A stretch of 64,000 nt of DNA from Patescibacteria group bacterium (GTDB lineage Bacteria; Patescibacteriota; Patescibacteriia; Magasanikbacterales; JBBTQS01): the NCBI GenBank assembly GCA_038065555.1, contig JBBTQS010000003.1, positions 26,266 to 90,265 of the forward strand. Reading direction: 5' to 3'. The position numbers and the translations under genes were made by a program. Positions 3,929-44,878 of the stretch are shown one piece after another; position 1 is the first letter of the stretch; each line of letters opens with the position of its first letter. Below the pieces are notes generated by a model, which saw only the letters and a list, made by a program, of their open reading frames with translations, ran no database searches and was not told the origin of the DNA.

Positions 3929-4531
3929 CTACTTTTGCTCCGTCAACCATCGCTCGGCATCAGCAAATGTTGTATAAAAATGTGCTGCAAATCCAAACTG
4001 CTGCGCGCAATCAATATTTGCCTGCAGGTCATCGAAAAGCACCACCTCATCTTTTGCAATTCCCGCTGCAGCAAGTGATGTGAGCACAGCTTCGAAATAC
4101 CGCGGATCATGCTTCTTCACGCCAATTTCGCTCGACGAAAACACGCCATCCATGAGCGAGCCCAACCCAACCACATCACGCAAATACTGCGTACGATATT
4201 TCTCGTTGTTCGTCGCGAGATAACAGCGGATTCCTTGCACGCGCAACGTCTGAATCCACGCGATCAACTCAGTGTCTACGACGCTTTCCGCACGAAACCA
4301 ATATTCCAAAAGTTCATCGACACTTCCCTTCCACTCCCACGTCGACACATACGGCGCAATAATTTCCTTCAGGTCCTGCTTTCCAACCAGACACTGCGCA
4401 AACTCTGCTGTGCGAAAAAAGGGATCCAGTGTCTCCGTTGGTACGCCGTAATCGCGAGTATACTGTAGACTAAATCGTTCGCCCCGAATCACCACGCCAT
4501 CAGCATCAAAGAGGATTGCTTTGCATTTCAT
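3929..4531 (-). CDS. HAD-superfamily hydrolase
   Basis: ATG at 4529-4531 gives MKCKAILFDADGVV (HAD motif I DxDG). C-terminal 'VVLFDDLQANI' is motif IV. The longer upstream extension has no coding character. Confidence 0.8.
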   Translation of the reverse strand: MKCKAILFDADGVVIRGERFSLQYTRDYGVPTETLDPFFRTAEFAQCLVGKQDLKEIIAPYVSTWEWKGSVDELLEYWFRAESVVDTELIAWIQTLRVQGIRCYLATNNEKYRTQYLRDVVGLGSLMDGVFSSSEIGVKKHDPRYFEAVLTSLAAAGIAKDEVVLFDDLQANIDCAQQFGFAAHFYTTFADAERWLTEQK

Positions 4532-9479: not shown

Positions 9480-9541
9480 TTCCATTGACATTTTTCGCCA
9501 ATCTGCTACGCTCTGGACCACCACAGCCATTGGAGGCGTTC

Positions 9542-9922
9542 ATGAGCAAGACAGTTCAACCCAACAAGCGTTCCTACGACGAGAAAGCCGAAGGCGCACT
9601 GCACACTGCGAGAATGTGCGTAAAACGCAAAAGAGACGAGGGCCACACTGATCCAACAACAGCACTCAAGAACTTTCTGTACTACGCATGGCGCGCAGGC
9701 AGAAGCATTGAGAGCTTTGGCACAACGGACGCAGAACTGCGCGAGATCGCACGCACCTACGAAGTGAACACTGGCGACCGCATCTTGCGACGGCTCAGTG
9801 GCAAGGGCAGCTACAGTCCGAGACAACGCCACAACCTGATCGAGGACGCGCGACGGATCTTCGCCAACGCCGGACTCTCCCAAGCAGAAATCGACCAGCG
9901 ACTCCGACCGTACCCTCGATGA
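9542..9922 (+). CDS. hypothetical protein
   Basis: Second in-frame ATG (MSKTVQPNKRSYDEK...). Basic, soluble; no motif recognised. Followed by a strong terminator. Confidence 0.4.
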   Translation: MSKTVQPNKRSYDEKAEGALHTARMCVKRKRDEGHTDPTTALKNFLYYAWRAGRSIESFGTTDAELREIARTYEVNTGDRILRRLSGKGSYSPRQRHNLIEDARRIFANAGLSQAEIDQRLRPYPR

Positions 9923-9987: not shown

Positions 9988-10776
9988 CTACCGCTTCTTG
10001 TAACTCACTGGCGTTGCAACATCCCACACAATCTCGAAGAGTGCACGAAGAATATTTGCTAGCACACTACTTTCGATAATAGCAGTCATGCGATTGGGGC
10101 GCTGTGGCAGCGCAATCACGACATTATTGTCATAGACCGTCAGCTCGCCACCAAATTGCATGAGCCCCTTCGCCTGATCCTTCGTCACCCATCGATACAC
10201 GGTATACGGAGACGGACGATACGTACGAATCCACTCACGTCCCTGCGGCGTGTCGAGCAGGAGGATTCGCTCTTTAATTTTTAGTTTGTTGCGATTGCGG
10301 TTGTACGAGCGCGCCCAATCCCACAACTCTGGATCTTGCCAGCACTCCACATCAGTCACAGAAATAATCTCGCCCGTGGCCTGCAATGATTCCTCGTACA
10401 GCCGCGTAACACCCTGCACACCTTCCTGATACCGAATCACTGGCTTTTCATTGTCCTTGTATAGCGCGACAAGATCTGGAAGTAATTGCTCCGCGCTCGC
10501 CACATTTCGCTCCCACTGATTTTTCTTGTTCTTCACGTACTGCAAGAAGCTGCGCGGATGTTCTGCTGTGTACTTGCGCTTCATTTCTGAACCACTAGTT
10601 CGTGTCACCAACCCCAGGAGCCCAAGACGTTCGAGAATAGAGTACCCAAGCGTGCGTGTGATCTGCGCCTTCTTTGTGATTTCAGTAACCGTAGCGGGCC
10701 CCAGTTCTAGGAGAGTGAGGTACACACATGCCTCGTTTTCTTCTAGGCCATAGGAGCGTAATGCAGTATGGAGCAT
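9988..10776 (-). CDS. TrmB-family transcriptional regulator (paralog 2)
   Basis: HTH 'ACVYLTLLELGPATVTEITKKAQITRTLGYSILERLGLLGLV' plus TrmB-like C-terminal domain. Confidence 0.8.
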   Translation of the reverse strand: MLHTALRSYGLEENEACVYLTLLELGPATVTEITKKAQITRTLGYSILERLGLLGLVTRTSGSEMKRKYTAEHPRSFLQYVKNKKNQWERNVASAEQLLPDLVALYKDNEKPVIRYQEGVQGVTRLYEESLQATGEIISVTDVECWQDPELWDWARSYNRNRNKLKIKERILLLDTPQGREWIRTYRPSPYTVYRWVTKDQAKGLMQFGGELTVYDNNVVIALPQRPNRMTAIIESSVLANILRALFEIVWDVATPVSYKKR

Positions 10777-18271: not shown

Positions 18272-18275
18272 GCGG

Positions 18276-18347
18276 AGCGGGTAGCGGGAGTCGAACCCGC
18301 TTCATCAGTTTGGAAAACTGAGATAATAACCGTTATACGATACCCGC
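18276..18347 (-). tRNA. tRNA-Gly (anticodon UCC)
   Basis: Minus strand: GCGGGTA acceptor stem / TACCCGC. Anticodon stem TCAGT/ACTGA with loop TTTCCAA, anticodon TCC. T-arm GCGGG-TTCGACT-CCCGC. Discriminator T; CCA not encoded. Confidence 0.85.
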
Positions 18348-21856: not shown

Positions 21857-23284
21857 ATGACTCCACGACACCCGCTCACCGCCTCGCAGTTCCTCCACTA
21901 CGAGTTCTGCCCGAATTGGGTCTGGCTTGATGCACACGGAGATCACAGTCGTCGCGCGCCGATGAGCGGGCTCATGGAGAAATTGCTCGAACAAGGCGTT
22001 GTGCACGAACAACATGTCGTGACACAAATGCAACCAACTGAAGTCTCAACGCGTGAGACCGCAGCAGCAGCCGAAGAAACCATGCACCTCATGCATGCAG
22101 GAGCAGAGGCAATTCACGGCGGTGTGCTCACTGCTGTAATCGATGGGCGCCAGTGGATCGGCAGACCCGATCTCCTACTGCGACGTTCTGGTGATTCTGC
22201 ATTTGGTCGATACTGCTACGAGGCAGTGGAGATCAAGAGTAGCCACGAGATGAAGCCAGTGCAGCGACTGCAACTCACCTTCTACTCCATCCTTTTGCAG
22301 GAAGTACAAGGAACATTTCCACCACGCGGAGGCATCATCACCATTCAGGGCGAGCGATTGTACTTCGATCCGCATGACACGATTGATCGGTTCACCGCGC
22401 GACGTCGAGAGATCGAACGCATTCTTGATGGCAAAGAACCCGGCATTACACTCACGCGTGGATGTTTGCAATCCCCGTGGGCAGCAGTGTGCCTAGAACG
22501 CGCAACAGAGGCGCGAGATATTTCGTTGCTTTACAATATTGACCGATTAGCACTCGATCTCCTGCGACGCAACAACATCCACACCCTTGAGGATGCTGCG
22601 CTCATGGATCCAGCGCTCATTCCACATGTACCCGGTGTTACACCTACACGCCTTGCACACATTCGATTGCAGGCGGCATCATTCTTGCACAACACCGTTG
22701 AGGTTGTACGCGAGCCACACATTTCGAAGAACGGTCTTCTGATTCATTTCGATATCGAAGCAGATCCACTCGTGGATACAGAATATCTCTTTGGATTTCT
22801 TATCGAAGGTGGTACAGAAGATACGTACGTCAATTTCCTTGCGAAGCAACCAGGCGACGAGAGCGCGATGTGGCACCAATTCTTACAGTGGCTCGAGACA
22901 CTCCCCGAGCAATACACCATTTATCATTACGCGCCGTACGAGAAGCACCACGTGATGATGCTCGCAAAAAAATACGGATCTACTCCTGCGCTCGAGCGAT
23001 TCCAGCAGAACCTTGTTGACCTCTTTGAGATTGCACAACGATCAGTAATCTTCCCGCTCTCGTTCTACTCATTGAAAGACATTTGCAAATACCTCGGATT
23101 CTCATGGCGCAATAATCAAGGGAGTGGTACCCAGAGTATTTTTTGGTATGAACGCTGGCTCGAGACTGGAGATCACAGCGCTCTCGAAGAATGTATTCGC
23201 TACAACGAAGACGACGTACGCGCTAGCGCGTTTTTGCGCCGGTGGCTCGAGAACCATAGTACGCAGCAGCCAACGCAGTTGTAA
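21857..23284 (+). CDS. RecB-family nuclease (TM0106-like): Cas4-like PD-(D/E)xK domain fused to a DEDD exonuclease-like domain
   Basis: N-terminus CPNWVWL, 'GRPDLLL' and 'YEAVEIKSS' (D...EXK nuclease motifs) plus a CxxxxxxxxC pair. C-terminal 'IHFDIEADPLVDTEYLFGF' is the exonuclease DxE motif. Confidence 0.65.
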   Translation: MTPRHPLTASQFLHYEFCPNWVWLDAHGDHSRRAPMSGLMEKLLEQGVVHEQHVVTQMQPTEVSTRETAAAAEETMHLMHAGAEAIHGGVLTAVIDGRQWIGRPDLLLRRSGDSAFGRYCYEAVEIKSSHEMKPVQRLQLTFYSILLQEVQGTFPPRGGIITIQGERLYFDPHDTIDRFTARRREIERILDGKEPGITLTRGCLQSPWAAVCLERATEARDISLLYNIDRLALDLLRRNNIHTLEDAALMDPALIPHVPGVTPTRLAHIRLQAASFLHNTVEVVREPHISKNGLLIHFDIEADPLVDTEYLFGFLIEGGTEDTYVNFLAKQPGDESAMWHQFLQWLETLPEQYTIYHYAPYEKHHVMMLAKKYGSTPALERFQQNLVDLFEIAQRSVIFPLSFYSLKDICKYLGFSWRNNQGSGTQSIFWYERWLETGDHSALEECIRYNEDDVRASAFLRRWLENHSTQQPTQL

Positions 23285-24407
23285 TTGGCACTGCCAACAC
23301 AAGTGCACACGAGCCAACGAGTGTGCGGACAATTTCTTCGGAAATCCCTTCACTATTTATTGCAGCCCAGACTGGCTGGTACTCATTGGTAGCAGTGAGG
23401 AGAATGAGCGGGAACGACGCACCAGCGTATGCAAGAGCAAGTGTGTTAACCAGAGATGCGATATGCTCACGTCCTACAGATAACCCGCGATGGTAAAGAT
23501 CCGCACGCGTCAGTGCGGGATTTGCATGGTGCAACTCTTCCACAACAGCCACTTGGGCCGTTGTAATGTCGTCCAGAATTCCCAATGCACCAATCAGAAT
23601 ACTCCCGAGCAGCAATCCACGCAGATCTAACGTCGCAAGAATGCCTGTTTTGAGGAAGTATGCTTCCTCACTGCCGTAGCCATACAGGCGCGCTACCCAC
23701 ACAAATCCATAGGAGAGCACTGCGGCGAGGCAGCAAGCGATCACCGTGCTCACCCAGGCAATGGACGTGCGGCGTGTGAATCCGTGAGCGACAAACAATG
23801 CAACTGTCGCAATAACAATCGATCCTACAATGCACGCGAGCAATGGATCACCACCGCGGATAATCCAAGGGATCACTCCTTTTACTAACACGAGCAGACT
23901 GATCCCAAGACCCACAACTGATCCCAGTCCTTTCCAGCGACCGAGCAACAACACGGCAGCAAGGAAAATCAGCCCAGCAACAAGAAGCGCTGGCAATCGA
24001 TACGGTTCGTAGATGTGGTACACCTCACCGAGTTTGGATCCGTCGTATGTCTCGGACTTGATAAGCACAACCCAATCACCTTTTTCTACAACAAGACCTT
24101 CACGCAGTGCGAAGTCCATGCCGTGATTAATCTGTTGTTCGCGTCCTTCCTCATCCCCGCTTTTGATTTGGACAGTAACGCGCTGCATGATGCGCTCTGT
24201 ACCATCTTCTTCATTTTCTACTGCAGAATTCTCGACAGCGGTGACCTCAGCGCGATACCAGACATCGTTCTTTGGTACATACGTCGCTGGATCGACGCTA
24301 CCTGGCGTACTGGTCGATTGTGCCTGTACCCCCTGAGTCGTGGCAACCACCAATAACACTGCACACACAGCAACACTCATGATTCGCATCCATTGATTCC
24401 AACGCAT
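23223..24407 (-). CDS. YibE/F-family integral membrane protein
   Basis: N-terminal signal/TM, a large exposed domain, then 7-8 TM helices. Start taken at ATG 24405-24407 (MRWNQWMRIMSVAV...). The upstream 85 codons of the track ORF lack an RBS or membrane character. Confidence 0.6.
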   Translation of the reverse strand: MRWNQWMRIMSVAVCAVLLVVATTQGVQAQSTSTPGSVDPATYVPKNDVWYRAEVTAVENSAVENEEDGTERIMQRVTVQIKSGDEEGREQQINHGMDFALREGLVVEKGDWVVLIKSETYDGSKLGEVYHIYEPYRLPALLVAGLIFLAAVLLLGRWKGLGSVVGLGISLLVLVKGVIPWIIRGGDPLLACIVGSIVIATVALFVAHGFTRRTSIAWVSTVIACCLAAVLSYGFVWVARLYGYGSEEAYFLKTGILATLDLRGLLLGSILIGALGILDDITTAQVAVVEELHHANPALTRADLYHRGLSVGREHIASLVNTLALAYAGASFPLILLTATNEYQPVWAAINSEGISEEIVRTLVGSCALVLAVPITTALAAAYYGSRATGAKTR

Positions 24408-24470
24408 AGTACACCCATGGTACCACTCGCTCCTCTTTACACAAACACATCCATTGCGTACAACTAGGAC

Positions 24471-24935
24471 ATGCAACCACACCCAGACATCGTCGTCATC
24501 CTTCCGAATATTCGTTCTGCCCACAATGTAGGTGCATTCTTTCGTACCGCAGACGCGATTGGCGTGCGCAAGATCTACCTCACAGGGTACACTCCAACTC
24601 CTGGCCACCCACGAGTGGACAAGGTTTCGCTCGGCGCTGAGAAAACGATTCCCTGGGAACACCGCAAAACCACCCCTTCACTCCTTCGCGAGCTGCGAGC
24701 CAACGGCTACAGCATTGTGGCACTCGAGAAGACCAAGAAAAGTATTGACTACCGCGAATGGACACCTGTATTCCCACTCGCCATCATTGTTGGCAACGAA
24801 GTAACGGGCATCACTCCAGCACAACTCGCCATCGCAGACACCGTCGTACATCTCCCCATGCTCGGGACCAAGGAATCACTCAACGTCTCTGTTGCCTTTG
24901 GCGGCCTCGCCTACGCAATTGCACGTTTTTTCTAA
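24471..24935 (+). CDS. SpoU/TrmH-family RNA 2'-O-methyltransferase (small TrmL-like form)
   Basis: SPOUT motifs 'LPNIRSAHNVGAFFRTADA', 'IVGNEVTGI' and 'LNVSVAFGGLAY'. Confidence 0.75.
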   Translation: MQPHPDIVVILPNIRSAHNVGAFFRTADAIGVRKIYLTGYTPTPGHPRVDKVSLGAEKTIPWEHRKTTPSLLRELRANGYSIVALEKTKKSIDYREWTPVFPLAIIVGNEVTGITPAQLAIADTVVHLPMLGTKESLNVSVAFGGLAYAIARFF

Positions 24936-25190
24936 CAAAAACAAACGCCGACTGCTTGCGCATCGGCGTGTGTAGAGCGTTTTGTCGTGTGAGCATCCGA
25001 CCACGTAACCACCACGAAACATGGTACGAATGCTCGCGCGACAATCCCTACGAATTATCACGTCTCCCCGTTCTTTTCGATCTCTCAAGGCACTACTTTA
25101 GCACATCTACACTTTTTGTCAAGTAACAAGTTGACAAAATACGCCCATGCAACGGCTCGTATTTTTCATCTGTTTTTGCGCAAAACATCC

Positions 25191-25219
25191 TTGACGCACC
25201 CCCTGGCCCATGCTAGGCT
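25191..25219 (+). promoter_or_regulatory. sigma70-like promoter TTGACG-17-(TGc)TAGGCT with no downstream protein gene
   Basis: -35 at 25191-25196; extended -10 TGCTAGGCT at 25211-25219. The transcript would start near 25226 inside a 535-bp ORF-poor convergent spacer. Confidence 0.3.
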
Positions 25220-25225
25220 GAAATT

Positions 25226-25472
25226 GCCCGCTACATGGACCTTGGGCAAGACCAGATTTTGCTCCTCCAGAGCAGAATGTCTCGCGTAGCAAGAGGGAGA
25301 TGCATTGCAATGGGGAACGCATAGCAATTTTCCCTGTCCACGTTGTACCACAACCCAACCGGCAAAGCCGCGCGGAGTGAAGTGACCGAGCACTCGTGCC
25401 CAGTACCTTCACTTCCGCGCGGCTAACCGACTTCCAGAATGCTGTCACCTACGTGATGGTTTTTCTTATTTT
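25226..25472 (+). ncRNA. candidate small RNA of unknown class
   Basis: Promoter above; a 15-bp bulged hairpin at 25368-25423; terminal small hairpin GUCAC-cuac-GUGAU plus GGUUUUUCUUAUUUU at 25444-25472. I found no match to tmRNA, RNase P or SRP signature motifs. Confidence 0.25.
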
Positions 25473-26229
25473 AACTCTTTCGACCTGATTCTTTGCGCTG
25501 CGCCTTTGCTCCGACAAATGCGAAATGAAAGAGCGTGCGCAATGTTTGTGCGAGTCGCTTGCTCTCAATAATTGCCGAATACATTTTGCCCTCGAATGTA
25601 ACCAAATTGATTTTGTCTCCGTACACACCGATGTGTGCCTTGAACTCGCCGTCTTTGCCCGCCACATAGTAGCGCTCTCCACTATCACTACTCCCACTTG
25701 TACCACCATAGAGTCCACGCATCCGCACGGAACGCTTGCGTAGGATGTTACGCAGCGGCTGCAAATCTTGTGGTGTGAGCACGGTGAAGAGTGCGTCGGC
25801 ATCAGCGATCTCGTCCATTTCCTTGAAGTCCGTGTTCGCCCAATCTTCCATGATTGCACGTACACCTTCCTTGCCTTCGAAGAGGCGAACAATAGGCTTG
25901 TCCCCGCCAGCCTGCAGTGTCAGCTCTGGGAGCATCTGTTCGAGATCAGCAATCTTGCCAGCAACGTCACTATGGTACCGATGCGCGTACGCAATGAGCT
26001 TGTTAGGTTGTTCTGCTGCAAAATAGCGCTTCTTGCCACGCATCACATTGGTGAACAACCCGCGCTCTGTGAGCGCGTCCACTGCGGTATACACTGCCTG
26101 GCGCGACAGATGCGTTGCCTTCGTGAAATCCAGAATAGTGCCAGCTCCACGAGTGAGGCCAGCCACATAGACTTTGATTTCACTGTCCAATAGGCCCAGT
26201 GAGCGCAAAAGCGGAGCAAGATCTTTCAT
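25471..26229 (-). CDS. TrmB-family transcriptional regulator (paralog 4)
   Basis: Start ATG 26227-26229 (MKDLAPLLRSLGLLDSEIKVYVAGLTRGAGTILDFTKATHLSRQAVYTAVDALTERGLF). TrmB C-terminal domain. Confidence 0.8.
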   Translation of the reverse strand: MKDLAPLLRSLGLLDSEIKVYVAGLTRGAGTILDFTKATHLSRQAVYTAVDALTERGLFTNVMRGKKRYFAAEQPNKLIAYAHRYHSDVAGKIADLEQMLPELTLQAGGDKPIVRLFEGKEGVRAIMEDWANTDFKEMDEIADADALFTVLTPQDLQPLRNILRKRSVRMRGLYGGTSGSSDSGERYYVAGKDGEFKAHIGVYGDKINLVTFEGKMYSAIIESKRLAQTLRTLFHFAFVGAKAQRKESGRKS

Positions 26230-26340
26230 ATTTAGTACGTTTTTACAAGTGTAGCACATGGGGATAAAAACGCCAGAATAACAAAAAGACCCACCCGGAT
26301 GGTGAGGTCGCCAAATAATTCAAAGCGATCTCGCACTCAA

Positions 26341-31994: not shown

Positions 31995-32070
31995 CCAATT
32001 GCCTCCATAGCAATCACCTCCGCTCGAAACTGAACGGAGGTGAGCAGAGTACCAATTATGAGCTACTACG

Positions 32071-44518: not shown

Positions 44519-44547
44519 TTGACAAACTTGAGGGTGGGTGGTATAGT
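44519..44547 (+). promoter_or_regulatory. near-consensus sigma70 promoter P1: TTGACA-17-(TGg)TATAGT
   Basis: -35 at 44519-44524 and extended -10 at 44539-44547, on the strand opposite to rpoB, pointing toward ftsK 550 bp away. Confidence 0.45.
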
Positions 44548-44850
44548 CCTTCGTTCATTTCATCCCATAGGGAAAGCTGCGGGGAGAGGGGCGCACGGAC
44601 CGCGAAACGGAACGTGTGTAGCAACTGACGTAGGAATACGAGGCTCCGGCTTTGGATCACCTGCTGAGGGCGCTGATGCGACAGGGAGTAGCTCTGCTAT
44701 TCACCATCGCTTCCTCTCCGCACTTTTCCCGATGGACAAATCACCACACCTGTGCCGCTAGGGCGCAGGGCACCTTCGGGCATCTGTCTTGGTCTTTACA
44801 TCCTCCATTCAATGCCCTACTGCCTTGCGCTCTGGCGGTGTTTTGTTTTC

Positions 44851-44878
44851 TTGACAGCGTATTCCTATGCGCTACACT
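44851..44878 (+). promoter_or_regulatory. sigma70-like promoter P2: TTGACA-16-TACACT
   Basis: -35 at 44851-44856 and -10 at 44873-44878, preceded by a U-rich tract (GGTGTTTTGTTTTC) that could end a P1 transcript. Confidence 0.35.

Follow-up and report, generated by a model that had tools for sequence, protein, structure and literature searches.

Two predicted small RNA genes, one with a conserved four-codon reading frame, in a long spacer beside a TrmB-family regulator gene of Patescibacteria

What is encoded in a long intergenic spacer that contains a promoter and a terminator and no evident gene? This question is raised by a 535-bp spacer in a stretch of 64,000 nucleotides (nt) of contig JBBTQS010000003.1 (GenBank assembly GCA_038065555.1, Patescibacteria group bacterium), which is called here the window and whose coordinates are used throughout. 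The spacer lies between a gene for a SpoU-type methyltransferase (24471-24935, plus strand, 154 aa) and a gene for a TrmB-family helix-turn-helix (HTH) regulator (25471-26259, minus strand, 262 aa, stop codon at 25471-25473). The two genes converge, and therefore the spacer cannot be the 5′ leader of either. An earlier note, written from the sequence alone, had described the right part of this spacer as a promoter and a terminator without an open reading frame (ORF), and had proposed a 6S-like or lineage-specific small RNA (sRNA). The comparisons presented here indicate that the spacer probably holds two back-to-back small RNA genes, and that the rightward one would be a regulatory RNA partnered with the TrmB-like regulator and carrying a ribosome-loading mini-ORF.

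The unusual length of the spacer was readily verified, since it is the longest among about 26 intergenic gaps (gene calls of L001, a 20-kb identical locus; the identical contigs come from Hainich aquifer well H41), and over its full length it is unusually structured on either strand (z = –6.9 and –5.7). Homologous spacers were collected by means of the flanking proteins, which provided six further sequences representing five to six lineages (L002/L007, L018, L024, L026, L011 (= L028) and L025), compared in an alignment (A3) and in a pairwise alignment with L011. The SpoU proteins of this close set are 81-100% identical to that of the window, reaching 100% in the L002/L007 strains, which share 97.5% DNA identity with the window over 1.9 kb; in L011, the flanking TrmB and SpoU proteins are both 85% identical. 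SpoU homologues at ≤76% identity have neither the spacer nor a TrmB gene adjoining. The overall survey covered about 14 lineages, with nine distant loci taken out of about 120 TrmB protein clusters.

The statement that the spacer contains no ORF did not survive this comparison. A Shine-Dalgarno (SD) sequence, GAGGGAG (25293-25299, plus strand), placed 10 nt upstream of an ATG and with its AGG invariant in A3, precedes the four-codon mini-ORF ATG GGG AAC GCA TAG (25310-25324, plus strand), which would encode M-G-N-A. The SD and the mini-ORF form the single conserved island inside the plus-strand transcript, composed of GCAGCA(A/C)GAGGG, about 10 nt, and then ATGGGnnnnGnnT(A/G)(G/A). In the close clade, the frame reads ATG GGN NNN G(C/G)N stop, with an invariant ATG, and the deduced peptides are MGNA (window and L002), MGDA (L018), MGNG (L024), MGCG (L026 and L011) and MGEG (L025). 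The glycine wobble takes all four bases, codon 4 also varies at its wobble, codon 3 is unconstrained, and TAG, TAA and TGA all serve as stop codons; the free wobble and the interchangeable stops mark a translated frame rather than an RNA helix. Moreover, in several lineages in-frame stops are found 1-9 codons before the ATG, indicating that these mini-ORFs are truly tiny.

Longer readings of the same region were also considered and rejected. A 29-codon frame running from the ATG at 25235 into the mini-ORF is present in the window, L002 and L018 only; the window and L018 disagree at about one third of its residues, and no equivalent start exists in L024, L011, L026 and L025. The conserved UUGCAGCAC block upstream of the SD falls in different frames in L011 and L026, and the frames from other upstream ATGs (ATGCAT... 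and ATGTCATGG...) were dismissed on the reasoning, from the close-relative comparison, that they are not conserved.

The same arrangement was found around much more divergent regulators, and it persists beside homologues of 44-59% identity even in wholly different neighbourhoods. In the nine distant loci (L012-L017 and L029-L031), the TrmB homologues are 44-54% identical, all other neighbours are different, and each locus has a long gene-free stretch beyond the stop codon of the regulator. A promoter of the same consensus as in the window (see below) is aimed back at the regulator in most of them, and a second, back-to-back promoter pointing away from the regulator is found in six of the nine (L013, L014, L016, L017, L029 and L031). 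The convergent strand carries one or two ORFs of 3-6 codons, mostly four, each led by a strong SD and followed by hairpins, with the predicted peptides MFGGG + MQGGG, MDGG + MGGG, MTGA + MGW, MGSG, MIGGNC + MIGA, MVGC, MGSC, MCH, and MEGG + MNGG. A terminator complete with its U-run extends over the regulator's stop codon in L012-L016 and L031, and in five distant lineages the ATG of the nearest mini-ORF is separated from the end of the TrmB stop codon by 80-112 nt. In L012, the promoter pointing away from TrmB occurs twice (at about 5297 and about 5452 of that locus, plus strand) in identical form, 155 nt apart and with an N run between the copies, either because that unit was duplicated in tandem or as an artefact of the assembly.

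To quantify the enrichment of these mini-ORFs, the 420 nt preceding the TrmB stop were scanned in 13 lineages for ORFs that open with an SD-led ATG and continue for 2-5 codons. The convergent strand presented 15 of them, against 0.47 expected from shuffles (maximum 3), an excess of about 30-fold, and the TrmB strand presented none. Glycine accounts for 24 of the 45 non-Met residues of the counted mini-ORFs (53%). When 20 mini-ORFs were compared, 15 had exactly four codons, G occupied codon positions 1-2 in 11-16 of the 20 and wobble positions in only 1-4 (a G-G-N periodicity), and SD-like purine runs stood 5-10 nt before the ATG (GGAGG-type cores, 5-7 nt). The combination is not a genome-wide habit, as SD-led mini-ORFs across the whole window numbered 11 versus 22 in shuffles. 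Taken together, the comparison showed that a module composed of a predicted promoter, one or more glycine-rich mini-ORFs with a strong SD and a predicted terminator, convergent to a TrmB-family gene, is conserved in Uhrbacteria-like Patescibacteria, and that the rest of the plus-strand RNA evolves freely.

The promoter of the plus-strand RNA, placed at 25191-25219 (plus strand), consists of TTGACG, 17 nt and TAGGCT with an extended –10 element (TGc), exactly as the earlier note had read it, and its predicted start is near 25226. A second promoter, on the minus strand (25122-25095), is composed of TTGACA (25122-25117), 16 nt and TGcTAAAGT, with a predicted start near 25088; both start sites are predictions accurate to within a few nt. 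A generic promoter and terminator scan, in which the plus promoter was unscored, produced hits no commoner than in shuffles, so that the window sequence alone proves little. The genome-specific consensus TTGACn-N13-15-TGn-TAnnnT, in contrast to the generic scan, had nine matches in the 64-kb window versus 0.3 in shuffles (about 30-fold enriched). These sites, of the form TTGAC(A/G)-N13-15-TG(C/G/T)-TAnnnT, are located at 3946 (minus), 9485 (plus), 12808 (minus), 16477 (plus), 25122 (minus), 25191 (plus), 32074 (minus), 33769 (plus) and 44519 (plus). Two of the nine lie in the spacer, and six of the other seven precede ORFs: five are 28-79 nt upstream of called gene starts and one is 30 nt upstream of a 126-codon ORF. 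The site at 3946-3918 (minus strand) has the –10 element TGCTAGGCT, identical to that of the plus-RNA promoter. This enrichment makes the plus promoter credible, and likewise the minus-strand one. In L018, L024, L026, L011 and L025, the plus promoter is kept as CTTGAC(G/C)-N17/18-TGnTA(G/C)nnT with a variable spacer sequence, and the minus promoter of the relatives has an invariant –35, a –10 of the form TAnnnT in all, and also a variable spacer. The consensus could be used for annotating transcription units in these uncultivated bacteria.

Three of the consensus sites are associated with other elements of the window that deserve a record of their own. The strong promoter at 44519 (TTGACAAACTTGAGGGTGGGTGGTATAGT) lies within a gene-free spacer of about 800 bp and is followed by about 300 nt without an obvious ORF and by a terminator-like hairpin with GTTTTGTTTT; this unit (44519-44856, plus strand) has no Rfam match at E≤1 and would be another orphan promoter-to-terminator unit, a candidate structured RNA. 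A TrmB-family paralogue (9988-10776, minus strand; 26% identical, E = 3e-19) also has a convergent unit, with the same promoter type at 9485-9512 (plus strand), its own terminator, and the 126-codon ORF (9542-9922, SD TGGAGG), for which no Pfam match was found. The promoter at 32074-32046 (minus strand) precedes an upstream ORF of five codons, which starts with the ATG at 32008, would encode MEAIG and has a very strong SD (GGAGGTGA); the TGA stop of MEAIG overlaps the ATG of a downstream 253-aa gene (ATGA, 31994-31991, minus strand), which suggests termination-reinitiation coupling.

The plus-strand RNA would be about 247 nt long (about 25226-25472), and the 251 nt from 25225 fold better than 200 of 200 shuffles (z = –5.1). 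Its minimum free energy (MFE) fold strings together five or six separate hairpins and the terminator. The first element is a 5′ structured domain (25230-25290, plus strand), closed in the MFE fold by a 5-bp stem, GCUAC (25230-25234) with GUAGC (25286-25290), which stands immediately upstream of the SD. Across lineages this stem occurs as GCUAC/GUAGC, GUUGC/GCAAC and GCUGC/GCAGC, two positions changing on both sides, and it encloses a variable interior of 38-51 nt; L026, L011 and L025 have common nested inner stems, whose sequences are apparently compensating when judged by eye. After the mini-ORF stop there is a C-rich, G-poor tract (25325-25365, plus strand; 18 C and 6 G in 45 nt). A universal C-rich tract, either rut-like or anti-SD, was rejected, because the tract is present only in the window clade (window, L018 and L011), L014 and L016.

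The long bulged hairpin and the terminal hairpin with its U-tract, both pointed out in the earlier note, were recovered. The former (25366-25424, plus strand, with 23 predicted pairs; noted before at 25368-25423) is a variable element. It is kept in L018 with a changed stem sequence, where the changes seem compensatory by eye, the pairs being uncounted; L024 and L026 have unrelated long hairpins, L011 has nothing comparable, and in L025 it is missing or replaced. It had been suggested that this hairpin could be the terminator of the TrmB gene. In favour of this idea, the apical part of the homologous hairpin of L018, read on the TrmB strand and about 95 nt into the spacer, is followed by UUUUUUAUUU; against it, this run is decayed in the window, and L011, L026 and L025 either lack the hairpin or have something else in its place. 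The element is thus possibly a decayed terminator of the TrmB-family mRNA (minus strand). The intrinsic terminator of the plus RNA (25441-25472, plus strand) comprises a hairpin at 25441-25460 and, directly after it, UUUUUCUUAUUUU (25461-25473), a stretch that extends over the TrmB stop codon; the run after the hairpin reads TTTTCTTATT, and the MFE fold lengthens the helix to 25436-25466. When read on the TrmB strand, it is a hairpin without a U-run. A hairpin and U-run in the same place are clear in most relatives with a readable end, namely L018, L024, L026, L011, L012-L016 and L031; the exceptions are L029, whose hairpin is oriented for the TrmB strand, and L017 and L030, which have no clear U-run.

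Conservation in relatives, which had been put forward as a check, was observed for the promoter, the terminator, the 5′ stem and the SD with its mini-ORF, and did not extend to most of the transcript. In five to six related lineages, the plus promoter and terminator hold their positions and the intervening sequence diverges, the terminator itself differing in sequence; between them, most of the plus transcript, including the big hairpin, is unalignable even against L011. An independent, lineage-specific small transcription unit is therefore the best reading of the flagged region, because the promoter is conserved with a variable –35/–10 spacer, the predicted terminator is unidirectional (plus) and the 5′ stem covaries; this much of the earlier interpretation was upheld. 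The suggested 6S-like identity was not: no match to 6S was obtained with Rfam at E≤10 over 24800-25700, where only chance-level matches appeared, the fold is a series of separate hairpins, and the body is unconserved even in L011. At gathering score, Rfam returned only a tRNA over the window, with no 6S match, and only tRNAs in 11 related loci, and no curated family explains the region in either search. Moreover, ARAGORN found no transfer-messenger RNA (tmRNA) in the window, only a tRNA-Gly at 18274-18347, in agreement with the previous failure to recognize tmRNA, RNase P or signal recognition particle RNA, which the Rfam searches also bore out. In sum, the earlier observation was partly confirmed and its interpretation partly supported.

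The second gene, missed by the earlier note, would produce a minus-strand sRNA of about 150 nt (25088 to 24937, minus strand; z = –4.4). Its core is the most conserved sequence of the neighbourhood, the flanking genes being about 79% identical in DNA. The core of 59 nt (24989-25047) is part of a long hairpin of 30 bp (24982-25050, minus strand) and, down to about 25037, shows two variable bases, one 1-nt indel and one substitution across relatives; L025 diverges over the last 10 nt or so, with compensatory changes. RNAalifold identified four compensatory pairs in the lower stem, contributed by L025, together with two U.G pairs that are invariant and on the plus strand would become A.C mismatches, which indicates that the RNA strand is the minus one. 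The invariant loop is UUUCGUGGUGGUUACG. The terminator (24936-24969, minus strand), a hairpin at 24947-24968 followed by a U-run (GUUUGUUUUUG), abuts the SpoU stop codon, and in L011, L024 and L026 its place is taken by hairpins of other sequence, each with a minus-strand U-run behind it. Both the plus and the minus units thus possess their own promoter and their own Rho-independent terminator on the same strand, in conserved form, as stand-alone sRNAs do. The minus sRNA appears to be confined to the closest relatives, roughly at genus level: a search with a covariance model of seven sequences detected it neither in 13 other loci nor at any other place in the window, and the loop 20-mer had no matches in viral contigs and one in metagenome contigs, in the same lineage as L011. 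A pairing of this loop with the plus RNA was rejected, as the duplex energies were no better than those of shuffles in four of five lineages.

Between the two promoters there is a palindrome, TTTTTGTCAAGT-AAC-AAGTTGACAAAA (25113-25139), which is a candidate operator. Its half-sites are invariant in all seven close sequences, and similar TTGTCAAG..CTTGACAA palindromes were read in the same place in the sequences of L031, L017, L015 and L029. The TrmB-family protein carries the TrmB-type winged-helix domain PF01978 (Pfam; residues 18-82, E = 1.5e-7), as do its homologues, and its C-terminal 180 residues or so have no Pfam match at E≤1. The homologues form about 120 clusters, the source names of which are mostly Uhrbacteria or Patescibacteria, and the closest named homologues of the flanking proteins belong to Uhrbacteria, Magasanikbacteria and 'Patescibacteria group' genomes.

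Two further features of the flanking genes were observed. Strains with 97.5% identity across the spacer have wholly different sequences directly upstream of the TrmB gene (L002 11760-13100 versus L001 11760-13150), with hypothetical-fba-pfkB-tkt genes in one and unrelated genes in the other, which indicates that a rearrangement breakpoint borders the SpoU-spacer-TrmB block. On the other side, the longest-ORF calls of a YibE/F-like gene (23223-24662, minus strand) and an RNase_H-superfamily gene (21857-23284, plus strand) overlap by about 60 nt at their convergent 3′ ends, and the YibE/F gene has a later start in the public gene call (385 aa instead of 479 aa).

How might such a unit work? A σ70-type promoter with an extended –10 (25191-25219) would start the plus RNA near 25226, and the transcript would present, in order, the stem-closed 5′ domain, the SD, the MGNA ORF, the C-rich tract, the variable long hairpin and the intrinsic terminator. 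Ribosomes would load on the mini-ORF, and their occupancy, not the peptide, would be what matters: the peptide is unconserved and the frame is conserved, which makes the act of translation (ribosome loading or dwell) the likely function. The plus RNA would be a regulatory partner of the TrmB-like regulator. The conserved palindrome in the promoter region would suit a dimeric HTH protein, and it is plausible as the predicted operator of this regulator. As the terminator has its U-run only on the small-RNA strand, the TrmB mRNA probably runs into the spacer, antisense to the small RNA; the 3′ part of the plus RNA would then be antisense to the unterminated 3′ end of the regulator's mRNA and could act on it in cis.

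Several observations weigh against this interpretation. The SD of the window is moderate (–7.1 kcal/mol) and predicted to be sequestered in a hairpin, and L015 and L024 fell below the SD threshold used in the mini-ORF count. No second copy of the palindrome, to which the TrmB-like protein would bind, was found in the window. Finally, the close clade comprises only five to six independent lineages, and nine distant loci were sampled out of about 120 protein clusters.

Among the alternatives, the one that survives best, though it is rather unlikely, is a leader-peptide attenuator that gates antisense transcription. Translation of the glycine mini-ORF, or stalling at scarce Gly-tRNA, would decide on the formation of the terminator, and read-through would yield an antisense RNA across the trmB-like gene. 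AspocR of Listeria, a riboswitch-controlled antisense RNA, is a comparable case. An attenuator would indeed present a short ORF led by an SD, with one or two hairpins and a terminator downstream of it, as seen here; the distance of 80-112 nt mentioned above resembles that of classical attenuators, the enrichment in a single amino acid is a hallmark of leader peptides, and the terminator is unidirectional and adjoins the stop codon of the regulator. In L016, the 5′ arm of the terminator begins right after the mini-ORF stop, and a modelled ribosome footprint abolishes the terminator. In nine of ten lineages, however, a ribosome-sized footprint over the mini-ORF left the predicted terminator unaffected; as it was lost only in L016, classical attenuation is unsupported as a general mechanism. 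Moreover, four codons leave almost no positional difference between a stalled and a terminating ribosome, in the many lineages with two mini-ORFs the first lies a long way from the terminator, a conserved antiterminator pairing was not found, and no structural gene follows on the same strand, the next gene being the convergent trmB-like one.

Still less probable is a purely non-coding, trans-acting sRNA, in which SD-AUG-GGN would be an RNA motif (a CsrA-type mRNA-mimic decoy or the partner of a C-tract) and the C-rich tract would act as an anti-SD seed, much as C-rich sRNAs of Gram-positive bacteria pair through such tracts with the ribosome-binding sites of their targets. Consistent with this proposal are the recurrent GGA-containing purine runs, the occurrence, in the window, L018, L011, L014 and L016, of a C-rich, G-poor tract downstream of the mini-ORF, the predicted pairing of the SD of the window with the downstream UUUUCCCU, and the two modules of some lineages, as a sponge would predict. 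Each RNA has only one or two purine-rich modules; sponges of the CsrB/RsmZ type display many GGA motifs in hairpin loops, in genomes with a CsrA-family protein. The proposal leaves unexplained the invariant ATG at optimal SD spacing, the in-frame stop that switches among TAG, TAA and TGA, the exact four-codon length in 15 of 20 mini-ORFs and the G-depleted wobbles, and the C-rich tract is not universal.

It is very improbable that there is no independent RNA at all, the structures being the 3′ untranslated regions or terminators of the two convergent genes and the promoter-like sites being fortuitous. Such a reading would be favoured by the terminators adjoining both stop codons, the U-run on the TrmB strand of the big hairpin of L018, the hairpin nearest TrmB in L029, which is oriented for TrmB, and the chance frequency of terminator-like sites in the window scan. 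Yet both promoters fit the consensus enriched about 30-fold, with conserved positions and variable spacers; the U-runs are on the strands of the proposed small RNAs and not on those of the flanking genes, and the SD and mini-ORF are strand-specific (15 versus 0). Least probable of all is that the ORF is a real gene whose tetrapeptide is functional, being secreted or modified much like the product of mccA, the 7-codon gene of microcin C, since strong and conserved translation signals and a length constrained to four codons are countered by a peptide unconserved beyond its glycine richness (MGNA, MGCG, MIGA, MVGC, MCH and others) and by the lack of consistently adjacent modification or export genes.

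If a regulatory RNA with a ribosome-loading mini-ORF is preferred over these alternatives, a broader and more tentative proposal is that the element represents an undescribed class of riboregulators in Uhrbacteria-like Patescibacteria, a possibility that we would not put higher than a modest chance. Such a class would consist of orphan sRNAs, always convergent to a TrmB gene, in which nothing is conserved except one or two four-codon oligo-glycine ORFs with strong initiation; the signal would be ribosome occupancy or Gly-tRNA status, and feedback would take place via antisense transcription and a shared palindromic operator. A literature search found no link between TrmB and Patescibacteria and no description of this element. 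Hardly anything has been learnt so far about post-transcriptional regulation in Patescibacteria, which are ultra-small and uncultivated, and this would be a conserved, testable module that brings together one regulator family, a palindromic operator candidate and an sRNA with a four-codon ORF. The latter would rank among the shortest reading frames under visible purifying selection and, if its translation is the functional signal, would widen the leader-peptide idea from the 5′ leaders of operons to stand-alone RNAs. Moreover, spacers without ORFs in these genomes could hold paired sRNA genes that go undetected by Rfam models.

With regard to known systems, the element shares features with attenuators, minigenes and dual-function sRNAs, and it lacks defining features of attenuators and dual-function sRNAs: there is neither a sense gene downstream nor a ribosome-dependent switch, and the peptide is not conserved. 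It is similar to 6S RNA in size range and in having an independent promoter, but it has no Rfam match, no rod with a central bubble and no conserved RNA body. SgrR/SgrS-SgrT is a dual-function sRNA adjoining its regulator (review PMC12310071), and there too an sRNA gene stands beside a sugar-type transcription regulator with an ORF on the sRNA; the arrangement described here, however, is convergent and not divergent, and it has four codons and no conserved peptide in place of roughly 26-50 residues.

The trpL leader of Sinorhizobium meliloti and its RNA rnTrpL (peptide peTrpL) constitute a ribosome-dependent attenuator RNA that persists as a small RNA (PMC7968998, PMC7298713). Similarly, the plus RNA would be a small, terminator-ended transcript with an SD-led short ORF enriched in one amino acid, and in rnTrpL-type systems the terminated product is itself a stable small RNA, which is a further likeness. 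In contrast to rnTrpL, it has no downstream sense gene, its ORF has 4 codons versus 14 or more, and no ribosome-dependent alternative structure was predicted in nine of ten lineages. Minigenes are ORFs of 2-8 codons, such as lambda bar and the axe-txe minigene (PMC8708949, PMC2490762). These are found inside phage or toxin-antitoxin operons, whereas the present element is chromosomal, occurs in many lineages as an orphan sRNA beside one regulator family, and is glycine-rich. With a very short ORF, within the range of about 2-8 codons, and its own SD, it corresponds to a minigene at the sequence level, and it is also comparable in that the effects of minigenes come from the act of translation and early peptidyl-tRNA release, not from the peptide.

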